The translations under genes were made by a program, and so were the position numbers. Source: a phage. Taken from it: a DNA stretch of 64,000 nucleotides. This document shows positions 8,854 through 15,752 of this stretch, piece after piece. Where the stretch lies: sequence record PZ172995.1, one strand, 5' to 3'. Position 1 is the first letter of the stretch. Every line of letters begins with the position of its first letter. Under the pieces are notes generated by a model that was not told the origin of the DNA, did no database searches, and worked only from the letters and a program-made list of their open reading frames with translations.

Positions 8854-8854
<1 letters not shown>

Positions 8855-10323
8855 TGGCAGGACTAACTACAACAGGATTACAAACTCTAAGATATCAGGA
8901 GATTTTTGATAATATCAAATCAAGACTTCTTAGAGATATTTCACCAAACCTTGACGTTTCTGAAGATAGTCAATTAGGACTCTTCCTAGCTTCAATTGCA
9001 AGGTCTTTAGCAGATACCCATGAGATTCTATCAGAAGTCTATGACGGTGGAACAATTGACAAGGCCGAAGGCTTTAACCTTGATGATATTACAGCTTTAA
9101 ATGCTGTATATAGATATGTTGCTCAGGCAACAAGAGGTCAGGTAGAGTTTACTGGAACGACTGGTGCTACCATTCCTTCAACAACAAGATTAAGAAGTAC
9201 TGCCGGAAATATCTTTTATCCAGTTAACAACATTACCCTAACCCCATCATATTGTGTTGAAGCTGTCCTTGAAGTTAACTCTTTACGAACTGATGCAGAT
9301 TATGTTATTATTATTGATAACGTCATTTTCTCATATAAACCAACCTCATCAGACACAATCACCACACTTCTAACAAAATTAGCAGAAGCTATTAATGGTG
9401 GTATTGTAGCAAAGGCAGAAGTCATTAATGATGGAGCATCATTGAGAGTCTATAAAGATGAGGGTGATATCATTGCCAGAACAAACCCTATGGTTGTCAC
9501 TGCGACAACATTTCTGACCTTTACAAAAATTACAACTATTTCAGATGTAGTAGCTGAAGAGGTGGGTGCTACCCCTGCTTTGGCTGGTACGCTTATTGAG
9601 ATTGAGACAACTGTTGATGGTCTTGACAGTATTTATAACAGATATGACTTAACAACTGGTAGAAACGAAGAAACTGACACAGAACTGAGACAGAGATATT
9701 TAGAATCCTTAGCAGTTACTGGTGTGGGGACTTTAGATGCAATTGTAGCTGCTGTTAAAAGAGTTCAAGGTGTCTCAGATGCTTCAGGTGTTGAAAATGA
9801 TACTGAAGAGACAAACTCAGAAGGTCTTCCACCAAAATCTTTTAAGATTGTCGTAGTTGGTGGTCAAAATGATAATGTAGCTCAGGCAATCTGGGATACA
9901 AAACCTGCTGGTATTAGAGCTTATGGTTCAATTTTTGGTACAGCCTATGATTTAGGTGGTTTAGCACATAATATCTATTTTAGCAGACCAACACCAAAAT
10001 ACGCATTTGTTAAAGTCTCTTACTCTTTATATGATGAAGAAAGCTTGACAATCCCTGAAGAAGATATCAGAGACAGTATTGTACAAGGTATTAATGCCTA
10101 CGGAAGAACTCTTAAGGTTGGTAATGACGTTATCCCTAACAGAATCTATGGATATATCTATGACGTAATTAAAGGTATTGAGATTAATGAAGTTAAAGTA
10201 GCATTATCAAACAGTCAATCAGTTCCACCTAGTGACGGACAGTATACTACAGCAAGAATTACTGTTGACGGTGACCAATATACTGTTTGGGAAAGCAGCC
10301 AGTATACCATCACTAAGGAGTAA
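8854..10323 (+). CDS. putative baseplate J-like protein
   Basis: 489 aa following small wedge-like ORF and preceding fiber genes; no motif recognised. Confidence 0.4.
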
Positions 10324-10325
10324 TA

Positions 10326-11180
10326 ATGTTTGAAAAGATTGATAGTGTTTATTACAAAACACTTGATGAACGAACTGTAACACAGTTTAAAGATAAGTTT
10401 ATCTACACAAGCATCTTGAAAGCAATCACTGATGAGTTACAAACACTAGAGGATGTTTGCTGGCAGATGCACACAGAGAGAAATATCAGGACATCAGTAG
10501 GTCAACAACTTGATAATATTGGCTCACTGATTAAAGTTCCTAGACCTTTAGGTGCTGATGATGAAACATATAGAGCTATGCTTTATATCCAAATCTTCCT
10601 AAGACGCTCTGACACTACTCCAACATTCTTGCAAAAAGCAATTATGACACTGTATGGTGCAACTTTCTCTCAGATTTTTGAGCATATTACTCCTAAGACT
10701 GGTGGTATCGTTATCCGTATCAACACTAGGAAAAGCGTTCTAGATGCTGCATATACACTGTCAAAGATTTCTGCAACAACTACTGGTTCTGCTGTTATCT
10801 TAAGAGATGTTACTTTAAAAGGAACTGCTTGGACACCTGTAGAGGTTGCTGATTCAGCACTTGCCATTGTTGATGATAAAGAGAACTGGTTTGTAACTGA
10901 TGCTAACAGAGGTCTTGTCACAAATAACACTGGTGGCTCTCTGGAGTCCAACCTAGTAGGAAGTCTTGCAGATGCTGGTGTTATTGATGGTTACTTTAAG
11001 GTTGACAGAACAGCAAACTCACAGAGTGATGATTACATGACTGTAGATAGGTCTAATAATAGTGGATATTTCATCGTTGGTAAAGAAGCTGTTGCAGGTG
11101 GTGCATACGGAATCATGGCTGAGGTTGCACAAATTGTCAAAGGCAGAAAAGATAAATCACAACAAGAAGGAAATTCTTAA
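10326..11180 (+). CDS. putative baseplate/tail fiber attachment protein
   Basis: 284 aa, RBS AAGGAG, between J-like and fiber genes. Confidence 0.35.
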
Positions 11181-11482
11181 TGGCAGTTTTAAATTGGTCT
11201 ACAAATGAAGTGGATACTGATGGTAATCAGTTAAAAGTTTTACCACCACCGGAAATTCAAGAGACAGGTCTTTTAAAGGGTGAGCCTATGGGTAGACAGT
11301 GGTTCAACTATATTATCAACTACCTGCTGAATAAAGTAAACGGCACTGTTGGTGAAGTTCGCTCATATGCAACTGAGCAACCAGATTTAGTGGCTAATGG
11401 CTGGAATCTAATTAAGTCTGAGACAGGGACTGCATCAACAAGCACAAGAAACCTTTACACATATGAATATGTAGGAGCTTAA
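11180..11482 (+). CDS. hypothetical tail protein
   Basis: 100 aa, coupled start, upstream of tail fiber. Confidence 0.4.
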
Positions 11483-11484
11483 TA

Positions 11485-12660
11485 ATGGCAGTAGGTGAAA
11501 TTCAAATTAGTGCCTTGCCACAAGCGGCCTTACCAATTGATTTGAGTGATATCTTCCATCTTAAGCAAGGTGTTGAGGATAAAAGATGTACGCTTGAACA
11601 GTTGTTAGCACCTCACGCATCTTTGAGGAATAATCCTCATGGTGTAACTAAATCACAAGTAGGTCTTGATAATGTTATTAACTCTCTTCAATTAGTTGCA
11701 GCTAATAACTTGTCAGATATTGTAAATGTTGCTGAGGCAAGAGCAAATCTACAAATTATGTCGTCAGAGGAAGTGAATAACTTAATTCAGCAACATATTG
11801 ACGACAAAAGTAACCCACACAACACAACGAAAGCACAGGTTGGTTTAAGTAATGTTCAGAACTGGACAACATCCAACCTGTACAATGAAGATGCTGATAA
11901 ATATGCTACCGCGAGAGCAGTGAATAATCTATACAAAGCTATCCAAGCATCATATCCAGTGGGGACTATTCATCTGTCTGTTAACTCTGCTAACCCATCC
12001 ACTTACTTGCTTTGTGGAGGTACTTGGGAGTTGGTTTCTAAAGGTAGGGCGCTTGTTGGTTATGATACAGAAGCTAGACCTGTTGGTTCAACGTTCGGTT
12101 CTCAGACTGTAGCATTAACAAATAATAATTTACCAGCACACACCCACTCTATCTATTTAACAGGTGGTGGTCACACACACTCTGCAAGCGTATCTATCTC
12201 TAGTTTTGATTATGGTTCAAAAAGTACATCAACTTTTGATTACGGTACAAAAACGACTAATAGTGCTGGTGCTCACACTCACACGTTTAGCGGCACGACA
12301 AGTAATGATGGTAACCATAACCATAGAGTACCACTGAGAGGTAATGATAGAAGTGGGGGGGATGCTATTACTGCATCTGCTTATGCTGGGGTTAATAATA
12401 ATACGTATACTGATTTAGCAGGTGCTCACACCCATAGCTTCTCAGGCACAACTGCATCATCTGGTGCTCATAACCATACTGTTGCAATTGGTGCTCATAG
12501 CCACACTGTTAATATTGGTTCACACAGTCATACGGGCACTGTTACTGTCTCTAGCTCTGAACATACACACTCAGGAACATCTGGTTCTGTTGGTGGTGGT
12601 CAAGCTTTCAGTGTTGAGCAGCCATCTTTTGTCGTGTATGTATGGCAGAGAACAGCTTAA
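11485..12660 (+). CDS. tail fiber protein with C-terminal HxH-repeat domain
   Basis: 391 aa; C-terminal third has repeated H-T-H / H-N-H / H-S-H triplets (AHTHSFSGTT, GAHNHTVAIGAHSHTVNIGSHSHTG) and ends ...VWQRTA; RBS AGGAG. Confidence 0.65.
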   Translation: MAVGEIQISALPQAALPIDLSDIFHLKQGVEDKRCTLEQLLAPHASLRNNPHGVTKSQVGLDNVINSLQLVAANNLSDIVNVAEARANLQIMSSEEVNNLIQQHIDDKSNPHNTTKAQVGLSNVQNWTTSNLYNEDADKYATARAVNNLYKAIQASYPVGTIHLSVNSANPSTYLLCGGTWELVSKGRALVGYDTEARPVGSTFGSQTVALTNNNLPAHTHSIYLTGGGHTHSASVSISSFDYGSKSTSTFDYGTKTTNSAGAHTHTFSGTTSNDGNHNHRVPLRGNDRSGGDAITASAYAGVNNNTYTDLAGAHTHSFSGTTASSGAHNHTVAIGAHSHTVNIGSHSHTGTVTVSSSEHTHSGTSGSVGGGQAFSVEQPSFVVYVWQRTA

Positions 12661-12669
12661 TTTCTTTAC

Positions 12670-12690
12670 AGGGGCTTTGTAGCCCCTTTT
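12670..12690 (+). terminator. rho-independent terminator (weak U-tract)
   Basis: AGGGGCT-TTGT-AGCCCCT followed by TTTT between the two fiber genes. Confidence 0.45.
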
Positions 12691-12706
12691 AAGAGGAAAA
12701 TTCATA

Positions 12707-15073
12707 ATGGCAGATTACAAATTGAGTCAGTTAAACTCAATCGACACAATTCGTTCAGAAGACCTATTGCATATCAGAGTTAAGAAAAGACCTGAAATGT
12801 TGGGTGACGAAGACCGTAGAATGACCTATCAAGACTTCTTAGCTTCCTTCAAACTAGAAAGGTTTGTTCAGATTGCTGGGAGTAATATGACTGGGGATTT
12901 AGGTATTGTCAAGCTACTTTACGGTGGAAAGATTGTATTTGACCCTACAGGCTCTTCTGAGATTACTATTGGGGATGTTTTAAAGACTTTTAAACTTAAT
13001 GCAAGTGGCCTTAAACTCACTATTGCAGACTCTTCAAGGTCAGCAACTGTTTATCACACTCTGAATAAGCCAAGCCCTAATGAGCTTGGTATGAGAACTA
13101 ATGAAGAGAATGATGCAAGATATGCAAGGCTTGCTGCAAATAACATCTTTACATCCCAACAGACTATCCAAGCAAATGGTGAAGGTATTAGGTTAAAAAA
13201 CTCTTCTGAGAACTCACCGTTGTATATCAGAGGTCAGGATAGTGCTGGTGAGAATAGATGGTATATCGGTAATGGTTCAGGGGGTGATAATGTTACTATC
13301 CGCAACCACAAGACAGACTGTGAAGTTATTCTATCTAGTGTCGTGGCTATCAATAAAACATTAAGCATCACTGGTCAAGTCAAACCTTCAGATTTCTCTA
13401 ACTTAGATGCTAGATACTTCACTCAGACAGTTGCTAATCAGAGATTTGCACAGTTAGCTGGTAATAACACTTTTACAGGTGCTAATACATTTAGGACTAT
13501 GAGTATTATCTCAAATGCTGCTGCTATCACACTACAATGTGCATCAGCAAATGAATCCCTGTATCTACTTGCAAAAGATTATCAAGGTGGTAACTTATGG
13601 TATGTTGGTAAAGGTAGCTCAGGTGATGGTGTAACTATCTACAACTATACCACTAACACCTCTTTGGTCTTAGATGCTGCTGGAGTATCAGCAAATAAAA
13701 ATGTCAGAATCACTGGTCAAGTTCAACCTTCTGATTGGGCTAATATTGACTCTAGATACATTCCAGCAGGAACTTTGAGTAACCTTGCTAAACTGAGTGA
13801 TGTGAATACTTTTAGGTCTGCGCAAGTTATTAAACAGAATGGTCCAGTGTTGCAGCTAAGGAATACTATTCAGGACAGGGAGCTATATATCTCTGCTCAT
13901 AATGCTGATGATGTTAGAAAGTGGTACATCGGTAACGGGGATGCTAACCCAGCAAGGCTTATTATCCACAACGACAGAACTGCAACTACGATTTATATGC
14001 AAGACGATTTCTTGCTGAATAAAACAGTTAGAATCACTGGTCAAGTCCAACCTTCAGATTTCTCTAACTTAGATGCTAGATATTATACGCAATCTGTAGC
14101 AAACTCTAGGTACATGCTTGCTGTCTCTACTGGTTCTGGTACAGAGGCTGGTGATGGTGATGGTATTGCTTGGAATGCTAGGACTGGTCTGTATAATGTT
14201 ACAGGGAAATCTGGTTGTTCAACACAGCTAGTTTATCAAATGTTTATCGGTGGTGGCTCAACACCAACTGCACAGTTGAAGTTTAGCTACAGGAATGGTG
14301 GTGTCTGGTATAGGACAGCAAGAGATGGCTATGGATTTGAGAATAGCTGGGCTAAAATCTATACAGACCAAGATAAGCCAACCCCTTCAGATATCGGTGC
14401 ATACACTAAAGCTGAAACTGACCAGAAGATTGCAGAAGCAATTAGTGACTCTACAGACCTGAATAAAATCTATCCAGTAGGTATTGTAACGTGGTTTAAC
14501 AGTAATGTTAACCCTAATACAGCACTTCCTGGTCTAACTTGGACGTACCTGAATAATGGTGTTGGCAGAACTATTAGGATTGCAGCAGCAAATGGTTCAG
14601 ATGTTGCTACAACTGGTGGTTCAGACTCTGTAACGTTATCTGTTGGTAACTTACCTTCACACACACATAGTTTCTCTGCTACCACTTCATCATTTGATTA
14701 TGGTACTAAGACTTCTAGCACAACTGGTAACCATAACCACAACAGAGGTAACATGGAAATTTCTGGTGTGGTTGGTTGGTTCAGAAGTGATAACAGTGCA
14801 TTCTACACTGCGAGCGGTGCGTTTCAGATGGGTAGTTCTCAGGCTTCACATGGCTTCACAGGCTCTAACTTCACTTACGGTGCTGCTGCTGATTTCCACG
14901 CGTCAAGAACTTGGACAGGTGTAACCAACACAACTGGCAACCACGCGCACACTGTTGGTATTGGTGCTCACAGCCACACAGTTAGCGGTAACACAGGTGG
15001 TACTGGTTCTGGTTCAGCATTTAGCGTCACTAACCAGTTCTACAAGTTAATGGCTTGGGTAAGGACTGCTTAA
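12707..15073 (+). CDS. long tail fiber protein with internal tandem repeats and HxH C-terminal domain
   Basis: 788 aa; three ~100-aa repeats each ending ITGQV(K/Q)PSD(F/W)(S/A)N(L/I)D(A/S)RY; C-terminus has HxH repeats and ends ...AWVRTA, homologous to C-terminus of 11485..12660. Confidence 0.65.
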   Translation: MADYKLSQLNSIDTIRSEDLLHIRVKKRPEMLGDEDRRMTYQDFLASFKLERFVQIAGSNMTGDLGIVKLLYGGKIVFDPTGSSEITIGDVLKTFKLNASGLKLTIADSSRSATVYHTLNKPSPNELGMRTNEENDARYARLAANNIFTSQQTIQANGEGIRLKNSSENSPLYIRGQDSAGENRWYIGNGSGGDNVTIRNHKTDCEVILSSVVAINKTLSITGQVKPSDFSNLDARYFTQTVANQRFAQLAGNNTFTGANTFRTMSIISNAAAITLQCASANESLYLLAKDYQGGNLWYVGKGSSGDGVTIYNYTTNTSLVLDAAGVSANKNVRITGQVQPSDWANIDSRYIPAGTLSNLAKLSDVNTFRSAQVIKQNGPVLQLRNTIQDRELYISAHNADDVRKWYIGNGDANPARLIIHNDRTATTIYMQDDFLLNKTVRITGQVQPSDFSNLDARYYTQSVANSRYMLAVSTGSGTEAGDGDGIAWNARTGLYNVTGKSGCSTQLVYQMFIGGGSTPTAQLKFSYRNGGVWYRTARDGYGFENSWAKIYTDQDKPTPSDIGAYTKAETDQKIAEAISDSTDLNKIYPVGIVTWFNSNVNPNTALPGLTWTYLNNGVGRTIRIAAANGSDVATTGGSDSVTLSVGNLPSHTHSFSATTSSFDYGTKTSSTTGNHNHNRGNMEISGVVGWFRSDNSAFYTASGAFQMGSSQASHGFTGSNFTYGAAADFHASRTWTGVTNTTGNHAHTVGIGAHSHTVSGNTGGTGSGSAFSVTNQFYKLMAWVRTA
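13113..14110 (+). repeat. in-frame tandem triplication (~290-340 nt units) inside tail fiber gene
   Basis: Protein-level repeats NSPLYIRGQ...WYIGNG...ITGQVKPSDFSNLDARY / ESLYLLAK...WYVGKG...ITGQVQPSDWANIDSRY / RELYISAH...WYIGNG...ITGQVQPSDFSNLDARY; coordinates approximate. Confidence 0.6.
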
Positions 15074-15080
15074 TCCCTTG

Positions 15081-15109
15081 TTGACTGATTGTTAAGATGG
15101 TGTTAATAT
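15081..15109 (+). promoter_or_regulatory. sigma70-like promoter candidate (TTGACT-N17-TAATAT)
   Basis: Hexamers at 15081-15086 and 15104-15109, 44 nt upstream of ATG 15153. Confidence 0.4.
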
Positions 15110-15152
15110 TCTTTATGGGTATTCTCACCATCTTGGCTGATGAGGTGATTAA

Positions 15153-15350
15153 ATGCCTACAATCCTAGCAATTCTTCTAAAAAATCTAGGTAGCTTCTTC
15201 TGGAAACTCATTTTATCCCTTCTAAGTGAATACATGATTGAGAAAGTGTTCTTTAAGCTTGCAAGATATCTTGCTAGTAAGACAGACACACCTATTGATG
15301 ATGAGTTCGTAGATAACTTAGAAAAAGCTTTTAAGGGGGAGAATAAATGA
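15153..15350 (+). CDS. small membrane protein (holin-like size)
   Basis: 65 aa, hydrophobic N-terminal segment (PTILAILLKNLGSFFWKLILSLL), charged C-terminus; RBS GGTGA. Confidence 0.35.
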   Translation: MPTILAILLKNLGSFFWKLILSLLSEYMIEKVFFKLARYLASKTDTPIDDEFVDNLEKAFKGENK

Positions 15351-15718
15351 AGTGGCTAGAGGAAGCTTTTAAAAATAATATTGGTGCAATTGTAGTTGGT
15401 ATTTTTAGTGTTATTGGGATGTATACCACGATGCAAGTTTCAAGTGGTAAACAAGAAGTGTCTATCACAACAAAATTACAGCAGCTAGATAATTATTCCA
15501 AAAGTAATTATTCAGCTATTCGTGATTTACAGTCTGATATGAGGCTGCTTCAGCTAGGGATGGAGAACCAGAAAGTCCAGTTAGAGAATGTTAAGGGTGA
15601 GAACGCAAAACTTACTAAGACTCTTGATAAATTCTCTGATAGTGTGAACAATCTGGCTCAATCAGTATCAGCCCTCCAAGCTATTACTGAAAAGAACACA
15701 AAGAATACTGAAAAGTAA
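15347..15718 (+). CDS. membrane-anchored coiled-coil protein
   Basis: 123 aa, N-terminal TM-like segment (IGAIVVGIFSVIGMY) then heptad-like Q/L/K-rich region; overlaps upstream stop. Confidence 0.4.
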   Translation: MKWLEEAFKNNIGAIVVGIFSVIGMYTTMQVSSGKQEVSITTKLQQLDNYSKSNYSAIRDLQSDMRLLQLGMENQKVQLENVKGENAKLTKTLDKFSDSVNNLAQSVSALQAITEKNTKNTEK

Positions 15719-15723
15719 AGTTT

Positions 15724-15752
15724 AAGGCTCCTTTTTACGGGAGCCTTTTTTG
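15724..15752. terminator. bidirectional rho-independent terminator
   Basis: GGCTCC-TTTTTAC-GGAGCC stem flanked by A-rich 5' and TTTTTTG 3'; between convergent genes ending 15718 (+) and 15755 (-). Confidence 0.7.

Follow-up and report, generated by a model that had tools for sequence, protein, structure and literature searches.

Homologous gp37-type tips and exchangeable heads on the two predicted tail fibres of a Felix O1-like phage

The tip of the T4 tail fibre protein gp37 consists of a collar (D10, residues 811-881 and 1010-1026), a needle stem (882-931 and 960-1009) and a receptor-binding subdomain (932-959) (PMC6957217), and it carries seven HxH motifs that coordinate seven iron ions along the needle (PMC6957217; PMC12609058). 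The needle is six-stranded and antiparallel, each chain going out to the head and then doubling back (PMC12609058). In phage vB_EcoM_VpaE1 (VpaE1), Simoliunas et al. (Viruses 2015) found amino acids (aa) 146-362 of gp74 and 584-780 of gp75 both to be homologous to the T4 adhesin, the first report of this kind (PMC4690856), and cryo-electron microscopy of phage Bas63 later showed both gp26 and gp27 to bear a T4 gp37-like tip made up of collar, HxH needle and head (Sci Adv 2025; PMC12609058). A shared gp37-like tip on both fibres is thus already known from VpaE1 in 2015 and Bas63 in 2025. Here, we describe the equivalent pair of genes in sequence record PZ172995.1, a stretch of 64,000 nucleotides (nt) of phage DNA referred to as the window, and name them TF1 (short tail fibre) and TF2 (long tail fibre). 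Our best explanation of the locus, to which we give a probability of about 0.88, is that TF1 and TF2 are the fibre pair of a Felixounavirus, with gp37-type tips, exchangeable heads and likely two specificities.

The region 11000-15400 of the window is 98.9% identical in DNA to Escherichia phage HMD-P10, 97% to vB_EcoM_Shy and 92% to EC6, and nearly all of the 236 phage records that match it are Escherichia or Salmonella Felixounavirus. Because near-identical DNA is present in Felixounavirus records, and given the fibre annotations of relatives, the window phage is by sequence a Felix O1-like myovirus (Felixounavirus) of the wV8 / EC6 / HY02 group, for many members of which E. coli O157:H7 was the isolation host. 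The order of genes expected of a Felixounavirus fibre pair was found: wedge 2 (489 aa), wedge 1 (284 aa), platform (100 aa), short fibre (391 aa) and long fibre (788 aa). The same order from wedge to fibre occurs in HMD-P10 and UAB_Phi87, where the counterparts of TF1 and TF2 both carry the annotation tail fibre protein. In each of the 30 related loci the two fibre genes are located 3' of wedge 1. Bas63 (JohannRWettstein) agrees with the window in genus, gene order and wedge protein sizes.

By alignment, the C-terminal approximately 220 aa of TF1 and TF2 are positionally homologous. BLASTP aligned residues 136-342 of TF1 with 562-759 of TF2 at 32% identity (E=1e-16), and a Smith-Waterman alignment of the C-terminal modules scored 260, as compared to 68.6 +/- 10.8 (maximum 108) for 500 composition-preserving shuffles of the TF2 tip (z=17.7). 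The Smith-Waterman alignment stays collinear, starting in the non-repetitive collar (YPVG...TW...G-R) and continuing through the terminal RTA, and both tips display the same succession of motifs, that is YPVG collar, LPxHTHS, FDYGTK, head, GxHxHTVxIGAHSHTV and AFSV…W(Q/V)RTA. Homology and domain order are direct observations. The original prediction, made by a model from the letters of the window, had placed two tail fibre genes at 11485-15073, and these coordinates proved exact, the two genes being 11485..12660 and 12707..15073 on the plus strand. The sequences it quoted are present, with LPAHTHS at TF1 216-222 (LPSHTHS at TF2 649-655), GAHSHTV at TF1 336-342 and TF2 753-759, H-N-H triplets at TF1 278-280 and 329-331 and at TF2 676-678, and the shared W(Q/V)RTA terminus in ...YVWQRTA of TF1 and ...MAWVRTA of TF2. 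It had further held the C-termini to be homologous and proposed a pairwise alignment, and the alignments above bear this out, the likeness being one of position and not of composition alone. What it called an HxH-repeat domain is indeed a homologous module, but one that begins at the YPVG collar, about 70 aa before the first HxH.

Since G, S, T and H are abundant in both tips and HMMER flags high bias for the repetitive HxH region, it could be argued that non-homologous low-complexity ends rich in His, Thr, Ser and Gly merely resemble each other in composition. The probability of this is practically nil, as the observed score exceeds all 500 shuffles, collinearity extends to the non-repetitive collar, BLASTP returned its E-value under compositional adjustment, and both tips match one and the same solved structure; a compositional artefact was ruled out by the shuffle control together with BLASTP. 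The N-termini of TF1 and TF2 display a weak local similarity (DxxH...EDxRxT...LA; z=3.8, reached by 3 of 1000 shuffles). This agrees with Bas63, in which the baseplate-binding domains of the fibres are conserved in structure and not in sequence (PMC12609058).

The solved structure in question is that of the T4 gp37 tip (2XGF), which TF1 aa 146-362 matched with E=3e-27 (phmmer), and TF2 with E=5e-4 alone (phmmer) and E=6e-21 when a profile of 30 related long-fibre tips was used. That both fibres end in a T4 gp37-type collar-needle-head tip is confirmed at the level of sequence. In a five-way alignment each of the seven HxH motifs of T4 lies opposite an HxH motif of TF1. The nine motifs of TF1 (aa 219, 230, 264, 278, 315, 329, 338, 347 and 360) include one additional HxH per strand at the collar end, giving four outgoing and five returning (3+4 in T4), and the four of TF2 (aa 652, 676, 746 and 755) correspond to T4 sites 1, 2, 5 and 6 (2+2), the two head-proximal sites and the last one being absent. 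This register of the HxH motifs is likewise observed directly. The C-terminal ...AFSV...W-x-R-T-A of TF1 and TF2 aligns with ...AFNYIVRLA of T4. The proposal of a T4-type metal-binding HxH tip thereby holds in so far as both fibres match 2XGF, although its description as a trimeric beta-helix was imprecise, the T4 structure being a six-stranded antiparallel beta needle.

The geometry of the needle may also be read from its repeats. Among 171 tips, taken from the window, 30 loci (L001-L030) and 120 database proteins (P0001-P0120), the count of outgoing FDYGxK tracks the count of returning IGxHxH (Spearman 0.87), a coefficient that is descriptive and carries no probability since the sequences are related. 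The pair of counts was (1,1) in 75 tips, (2,2) in 57, (3,3) in 7 and (4,4) in 3. This co-variation supports the out-and-back geometry independently of the T4 alignment, and needle length appears to evolve by paired gain or loss of repeats on the two strands. Splitting the HxH motifs into outgoing and returning by the largest gap misplaced the head, for example in TF1 of L012, and the two correlations obtained from that split (rho about 0) were set aside.

With T4 and Bas63 as models, each fibre would be a homotrimer in which the collar leads into the needle and the chain runs outward along it to a small distal head and then back, the last ~30 residues (...AFSV...W-x-R-T-A) rejoining the collar. 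Each HxH, contributed by three chains, would place six histidines around one buried metal ion (iron in T4), and the buried metals at the HxH layers would rigidify the needle. Nine ions are predicted in the longer needle of TF1 and four in the shorter needle of TF2, and the head loops would touch the receptor. In Bas63 the short fibre docks on wedge 2 (gp23) and the long fibre on the platform gp25 (PMC12609058); in the window phage, correspondingly, the short fibre would be anchored on wedge 2 and the long fibre on the 100-aa platform, both folded up along the sheath prior to infection as in Bas63.

T4 gp37 resembles TF1 and TF2 in its collar, its HxH-lined needle, its small head, its doubling-back chain and the position of its C-terminus in the collar. 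It differs in having seven HxH motifs as against nine and four, in a head unrelated to those of the window, and in its ending ...Y-I-V-R-L-A, where the window fibres have ...W-x-R-T-A. The T4 tip is mounted on a fibre of four proteins, gp34-gp37, whereas the window encodes single-protein fibres with no gp38-type gene next to them. Bas63 has seven (short) and six (long) HxH motifs, including one HHxH, as compared to nine and four in the window. The related locus L017, in which 7 + 6 HxH and an HHxH at aa 689 are found as published for Bas63, carries heads of clusters 11 and 7, and the window heads belong to clusters 10 and 1. In VpaE1 the homologous stretch of gp74, aa 146-362, covers the same residues as in TF1, and fibre N-termini were described as conserved and C-termini as variable (PMC4690856). 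The main text of the PhageMaP preprint on Bas63 contains no fibre-specific statement.

The collars of T4 gp10 and gp12 (Pfam Gp10_C PF21939; PDB 2FKK) represent the fold family of both window collars. T4 gp12 has a single HxH zinc site, and the N-terminal parts of gp10 and gp12 differ from those of the window fibres. The likeness to gp10 ends at the collar; in the window fibres a complete HxH needle and a head come next. This bears on whether TF1 could be a structural baseplate component like T4 gp10, with host recognition left to TF2 alone. The best Pfam match of TF1 is indeed Gp10_C (E=2e-18), its PDB matches include T4 gp10, and the role of the short fibre in Felix O1 relatives was described as unexplored in the BASEL paper (PMC8594841). 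However, the similarity of TF1 to gp10 is confined to the collar (aa 140-240), and its needle, head and return strand are complete and match the gp37 tip (E=3e-27). The TF1 head is hypervariable, with at least seven types, as expected of a surface in contact with the host, and Bas63 gp26 was resolved as a 430-A fibre along the sheath with a terminal head (PMC12609058). We consider a purely structural role for TF1 to be very improbable and regard both proteins as fibres with gp37-type tips.

The variation of the heads was studied in 31 genomes, comprising 29 related IMG/VR loci fetched by their conserved wedge protein, HMD-P10 and the window. Both fibres were present in all 31, with HxH counts of 7 or 9 in TF1 and of 4, 6 or 7 in TF2 and with endings specific to each fibre, ...VW(Q/K)R(T/V)A in the short and ...LMAWV(R/K)TA in the long. 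An alignment of 30 long fibres shows hardly any variation in the collar and the final 40 aa, and hypervariability in columns about 101-195. Fourteen head types (at ~55% identity) occupy the space between conserved flanks, at least seven of them among the short fibres of relatives, and since they occur in 11 short/long combinations, heads assort independently. On our reading the head is an exchangeable cassette bounded by SSFDYGTK and GxHxHTVxIGAHxHTV. The conserved flanks, alike even in DNA, act as recombination junctions, so that heads are passed from phage to phage, are exchanged by prophage and phage fibres and, in some relatives, reach the second fibre of the same genome. Exchange junctions coincide with these two most conserved motifs in every case; the cassette boundaries and the exchange events in relatives were observed directly. 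The specificity of T-even adhesins is reportedly swapped by recombination between conserved motifs, as proposed by Tetart et al. (J Mol Biol 1998), and the coincidence of exchange junctions with conserved motifs agrees with that proposal.

Exchange with T4-like phages is exemplified by the long fibre of L027, of which nt 2047-2333 are 93% identical in DNA to T4 gene 37 over 287 nt (E=5e-123), and by that of L015 (nt 2056-2342), with 88% identity. The tract in L027 corresponds to about aa 897-993 of gp37, from SSFDYGTK to GIGAHTHTV, as converted from locus coordinates. These matches indicate that heads passed between Felixounavirus and Tequatrovirus relatively recently; in the VpaE1 paper, similarity to T4 had been reported at the protein level only (54%) (PMC4690856). 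Where L027 carries the T4 head cassette, TF2 of the window has the RGNMEIS...SRTW head instead.

The head of TF2 (NHNHN-RGNMEISGVVGWFRSD...FHASRTWTG) recurs in the close clade and in the more distant loci L023 and L024. Judged by score, some Shigella phages (Sf16, Sf17) among the Ounavirinae matches rank above phages with other head types at similar identity. In the fibre of a Mu-like E. coli prophage (P0113, 344 aa; L035:6001-7035) the TF2 cassette is matched at 74 of 100 positions and the collar at 34%, and at the DNA level the cassette is found with 72-74% identity among the prophage fibre genes of complete E. coli genomes, 15 out of 5,426 having it, O104:H4 strains among them. This Mu-like fibre carries the window TF2 head on the collar-needle scaffold, with the same loss of head-proximal HxH motifs. 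It differs by its T4-like collar and ...NIAFNYIVRLA end, and it is a short Mu-type fibre whose gene is followed by one for a Caudo_TAP chaperone. Two other candidate carriers of the TF2 head were rejected: in T-even phages, gp37 of Mosigvirus (O157 typing phage 6) matches mainly the needle flanks and has a different cassette, and Klebsiella phage Mulock is alike in collar and ending and has a short and different head.

A possible, still tentative interpretation is that the TF2 tip is a distinct gp37-type sub-variant, in which an aromatic-rich head of 67 aa replaces two head-proximal metal sites. The cassette, common to rare Mu-like E. coli prophages and apparently to Shigella-infecting Ounavirinae, may then be a module that carries specificity for some widespread surface structure from phage to phage, and the conserved flanks may allow heads to be copied between a phage's own fibres, as seen in the UAB_Phi87 clade. 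Speculatively, O157:H7 and S. flexneri share an R3-type lipopolysaccharide (LPS) core. Head copying between own fibres as a route to altered host range in Felixounavirus was not described in the literature searched.

Recombinational exchange between the two fibres had been part of the original prediction. In the window itself, a dc-megablast comparison of the TF1 and TF2 genes gave no match, and blastn found 37 nt at 86% at GNHAHTVGIGAHSHTV (43 nt in close relatives) and shorter motif matches only. This residual match sits at the GxHxHTVGIGAHSHTV motif. Codon-aligned nucleotide identity between TF1 and TF2 is 47-64% in the collar and 31-42%, the random level, in the heads, which differ in length (33 aa in TF1, 67 aa in TF2) and share 10 aligned identities. 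Because there is no DNA similarity between the tips beyond these 37-43 nt, a recent exchange between TF1 and TF2 in the window genome is not supported by the sequences.

The same data speak to a recent duplication or gene conversion that would have made the two window tips effectively copies of one another. Conversion does happen in the UAB_Phi87 clade (200 nt at 91%, with 90 identical nt), and the 37-43 nt at about 86% persist at the junction in the window. Such an origin is nevertheless exceedingly improbable here given the empty dc-megablast result, the motif-level blastn matches, the low identities of collars and heads and the unequal heads. Furthermore, TF1 matches T4 gp37 better than TF2 does (3e-27 versus 5e-4), while the TF1-TF2 BLASTP match has E=1e-16. 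A recent intragenomic duplication in the window was rejected on the dc-megablast and motif-match results.

A different situation was found in UAB_Phi87 (L012 / L032), where nt 748-947 of the short fibre and nt 1990-2189 of the long fibre are 91% identical over 200 nt (E=8e-79). This tract includes 90 consecutive identical nt (short aa 284-313, long aa 698-727), and its flanks are about 50% identical. The head type concerned, GG[HR]YGGDSIGGK..., is the only one present on both fibres; a clade of Salmonella phages, which also includes L011, L026 and L028, carries it on five short fibres and four long ones. Within the clade the cassette sequences otherwise cluster by fibre, a pattern suggestive of an older transfer to which, in UAB_Phi87, a recent intragenomic conversion was added. 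Exchange between the fibres is accordingly a feature of the genus that is undetectable in the window phage, for which it had been proposed; no earlier description of exchange between the two Felixounavirus fibres was found in the literature searched.

The receptors reported for Felixounavirus are LPS structures (PMC8594841; PMC8300805), and in T4 residues of the tip subdomain are required for receptor binding (PMC6957217). As judged from sequence, the window virion most likely presents two ligand specificities on one scaffold, a possibility raised in the original prediction. This reading is preferred since TF1 and TF2 have unrelated heads, 14 types exist in the group and heads assort independently. 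By analogy with the genus, both heads probably bind LPS structures. The two fibres could instead bind the same receptor, for redundancy or avidity, with the divergence of the heads being neutral or antigenic. A phage of this kind would be viable, as seen from the UAB_Phi87 clade with one head type on both fibres, and all receptors reported for the genus are LPS (PMC8594841; PMC8300805). On the other hand, the window heads are unrelated in both sequence and length, the 11 combinations in 31 genomes show heads assorting independently, and the equivalent residues of the T4 tip subdomain are needed for receptor binding (PMC6957217). We therefore regard one common receptor as unlikely and two specificities as the better account.

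Some observations weigh against the overall interpretation of the fibre pair. An AlphaFold2 model of the TF2 tip as a monomer, from a 121-sequence alignment, had a mean predicted local distance difference test score (pLDDT) of 67.5, with residues about 128-174 (the head) below 50 and the collar and needle base confident; a monomer is an unfair test of an intertwined trimer. A Foldseek search of this monomer model against the PDB gave no significant match, the best being the C-terminal part of T4 gp10 (2FKK, E=0.44), along with C24 (6OV6), which is the right family. T4 gp37 depends on the chaperones gp38 and gp57A, and the 64-kb window harboured no gp38 or Caudo_TAP homologue, so assembly may differ. 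The tblastn search of the window with T4 gp38, the Mosigvirus fibre-assembly protein and the Mu-like TAP revealed no chaperone (best E=0.79), a search of limited sensitivity in which gp57A was not included. The open reading frames (ORFs) 3' of the fibres (15153-15718) fall in no chaperone family of PHROGs, unlike T4 (gp38) and the Mu-like prophage (Caudo_TAP), and the Sf14 paper likewise reports no chaperone homologue. Finally, different head sequences are no proof of different ligands, and the trimeric state, the metal binding, the identity of the receptor and a difference in ligand between the two heads are inferred.

Table 1. Features of the fibre locus in the window (plus strand throughout), with the evidence for each
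Feature	Positions	Strand	Evidence and remarks
Baseplate wedge protein, 489 aa, equivalent of Bas63 'wedge 2' gp23	8854..10323	+	Pfam Baseplate_J E=6.6e-16; PHROG 6 'baseplate wedge subunit'; length and order as Bas63 gp23
Baseplate wedge protein, 284 aa, equivalent of Bas63 'wedge 1' gp24	10326..11180	+	PHROG 4017 'baseplate protein' E=2e-167; order and length (Bas63: 285 aa, PMC12609058)
Putative long-fibre platform, 100 aa, analogue of Bas63 gp25 / T4 gp9 by synteny alone	11180..11482	+	PHROG 4141 E=8e-61 (function unknown); between wedge 1 and short fibre; 'hypothetical' in HMD-P10
TF1, short tail fibre gene, 391 aa, equivalent of Bas63 gp26 / VpaE1 gp74	11485..12660	+	ORF; PHROG 2097 'tail fiber protein' E=3e-139; tip 100% identical in HMD-P10
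TF1 N-terminal attachment region and short shaft, aa 1-149	11485..11931	+	two NPHxxTKxQVGLxNV copies (aa 50-64, 110-124)
TF1 collar, aa about 150-222 (T4 gp37 D10 / gp10 C-terminal fold), ends LPAHTHS	11932..12150	+	Pfam Gp10_C E=2.1e-18 (aa 154-276); 2FKK E=5.8e-6; 2XGF
TF1 outgoing needle strand, aa 219-280: 4 HxH, 2 FDYGxK repeats	12139..12324	+	aligns with T4 gp37 HxH 1-3; one further HxH lies at the collar end
TF1 head, presumed receptor-binding tip, aa 281-313, RVPLRGNDRSGGDAITASAYAGVNNNTYTDLAG	12325..12423	+	aligns with T4 gp37 tip subdomain 932-959; head type 10, close clade only
TF1 returning needle strand, aa 314-362: 5 HxH, including two IGxHSHT repeats	12424..12570	+	alignment
TF1 C-terminal return to collar, aa 363-391, ...GQAFSVEQPSFVVYVWQRTA and stop codon	12571..12660	+	aligns with TF2 ...SAFSVTNQFYKLMAWVRTA and T4 ...NIAFNYIVRLA
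Spacer between fibre genes, 46 nt: hairpin GGGGCT-ttgt-AGCCCC, TTTT, then ribosome-binding site AAGAGGAAA	12661..12706	+	read from sequence
TF2, long tail fibre gene, 788 aa, equivalent of Bas63 gp27 / VpaE1 gp75	12707..15073	+	ORF; PHROG 4277 'tail fiber protein', 1325 bits, full length
TF2 shaft: three gp37_trimer repeats, each ending ITGQVxPSDxxNxDxRY (aa 221, 335, 443)	13073..14116	+	Pfam PF20744 E=8.5e-65, 3 stretches; highly mosaic among relatives
TF2 knob, aa 475-583, common to phage Mu S fibre	14129..14455	+	Pfam gp37_C E=6.2e-21; PDB 8JU3 (Mu tail fibre S/S') E=1e-21 over aa 477-576
TF2 collar, aa 586-654, ends LPSHTHS	14462..14668	+	Pfam Gp10_C E=1.3e-4, 23.3 bits (below the 27-bit cut-off); homologous to TF1 collar; nearly invariant in 30 long fibres
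TF2 outgoing needle strand, aa 652-678: 2 HxH, 1 FDYGTK repeat	14660..14740	+	alignment
TF2 head cassette, aa 679-745, NRGNMEISGVVGWFRSD...FHASRTWTGVTNTTGN, enlarged, replaces two head-proximal HxH sites of other long fibres	14741..14941	+	hypervariable alignment block; head type 1
TF2 returning needle strand, aa 746-757: 2 HxH (GNHAHTVGIGAHSHTV)	14942..14977	+	alignment; site of TF1-TF2 DNA match (37 nt, 86%)
TF2 C-terminal return to collar, aa 758-788, ...SAFSVTNQFYKLMAWVRTA and stop codon	14978..15073	+	alignment; nearly invariant in 30 loci

The coordinates of the fibres, their parts and the genes preceding them are collected in Table 1. The shaft of the long fibre, compared over window positions 13100-14300 with L002-L030, is as mosaic as the tip. 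In close relatives, whose baseplate genes are 90-99% identical, blocks of the long-fibre shaft fall below detectable DNA similarity, and in distant relatives the genes right after the long fibre (15000-15400) are 90-99% identical. The mosaicism of the shaft fits the remark in the Bas63 paper on the unexpected variability of beta-helix repeat domains.

The spacer at 12661-12706 contains a GC-rich hairpin of 6 bp followed by the strong ribosome-binding site AAGAGGAAA. The hairpin could be a weak terminator or an RNA-stability element tuning the relative expression of TF1 and TF2; a terminator scan did not list it and gave 15724-15747 as the sole site in the region. Downstream of the fibres (15153-15718) lie two ORFs of 65 and 123 aa that belong to PHROGs families of unknown function, with one weak match to an Rz-like spanin, and the second of them is labelled holin in HMD-P10. 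Beyond these two small ORFs follows a block of nucleotide metabolism genes on the minus strand (thymidylate synthase, dihydrofolate reductase and others). The GC skew changes sign at about 16 kb (~15750) and again at about 26 kb (~26000), and the first of these flips coincides with the minus-strand block and with a strong, bidirectional-looking terminator at 15724-15747.

The main worth of the analysis lies in confirmation, in that a structural module was recognised correctly from raw sequence and without tools. Added here, and not found in the literature searched, are the HxH counts of nine and four in the clade of the window phage, the loss of head-proximal sites in TF2, the catalogue of heads, the inter-fibre exchange in the UAB_Phi87 clade and the sharing of the TF2 head with a Mu-like prophage. 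These additions refine the known mosaicism of tail fibres and do not amount to a new kind of system. For engineering purposes, the tip offers a scaffold whose junctions are defined, namely SSFDYGTK on the outgoing strand and GxHxHTVxIGAHxHTV on the returning one. Across them heads have been swapped naturally between Felixounavirus, T4-like phages and Mu-like prophages, as well as from one fibre to the other within a genome. The junctions are sensible cut points for the retargeting of O157-type Felixounavirus phages, and a virion with nine HxH motifs in one fibre and four in the other is a natural experiment on the number of metal layers that a needle requires.

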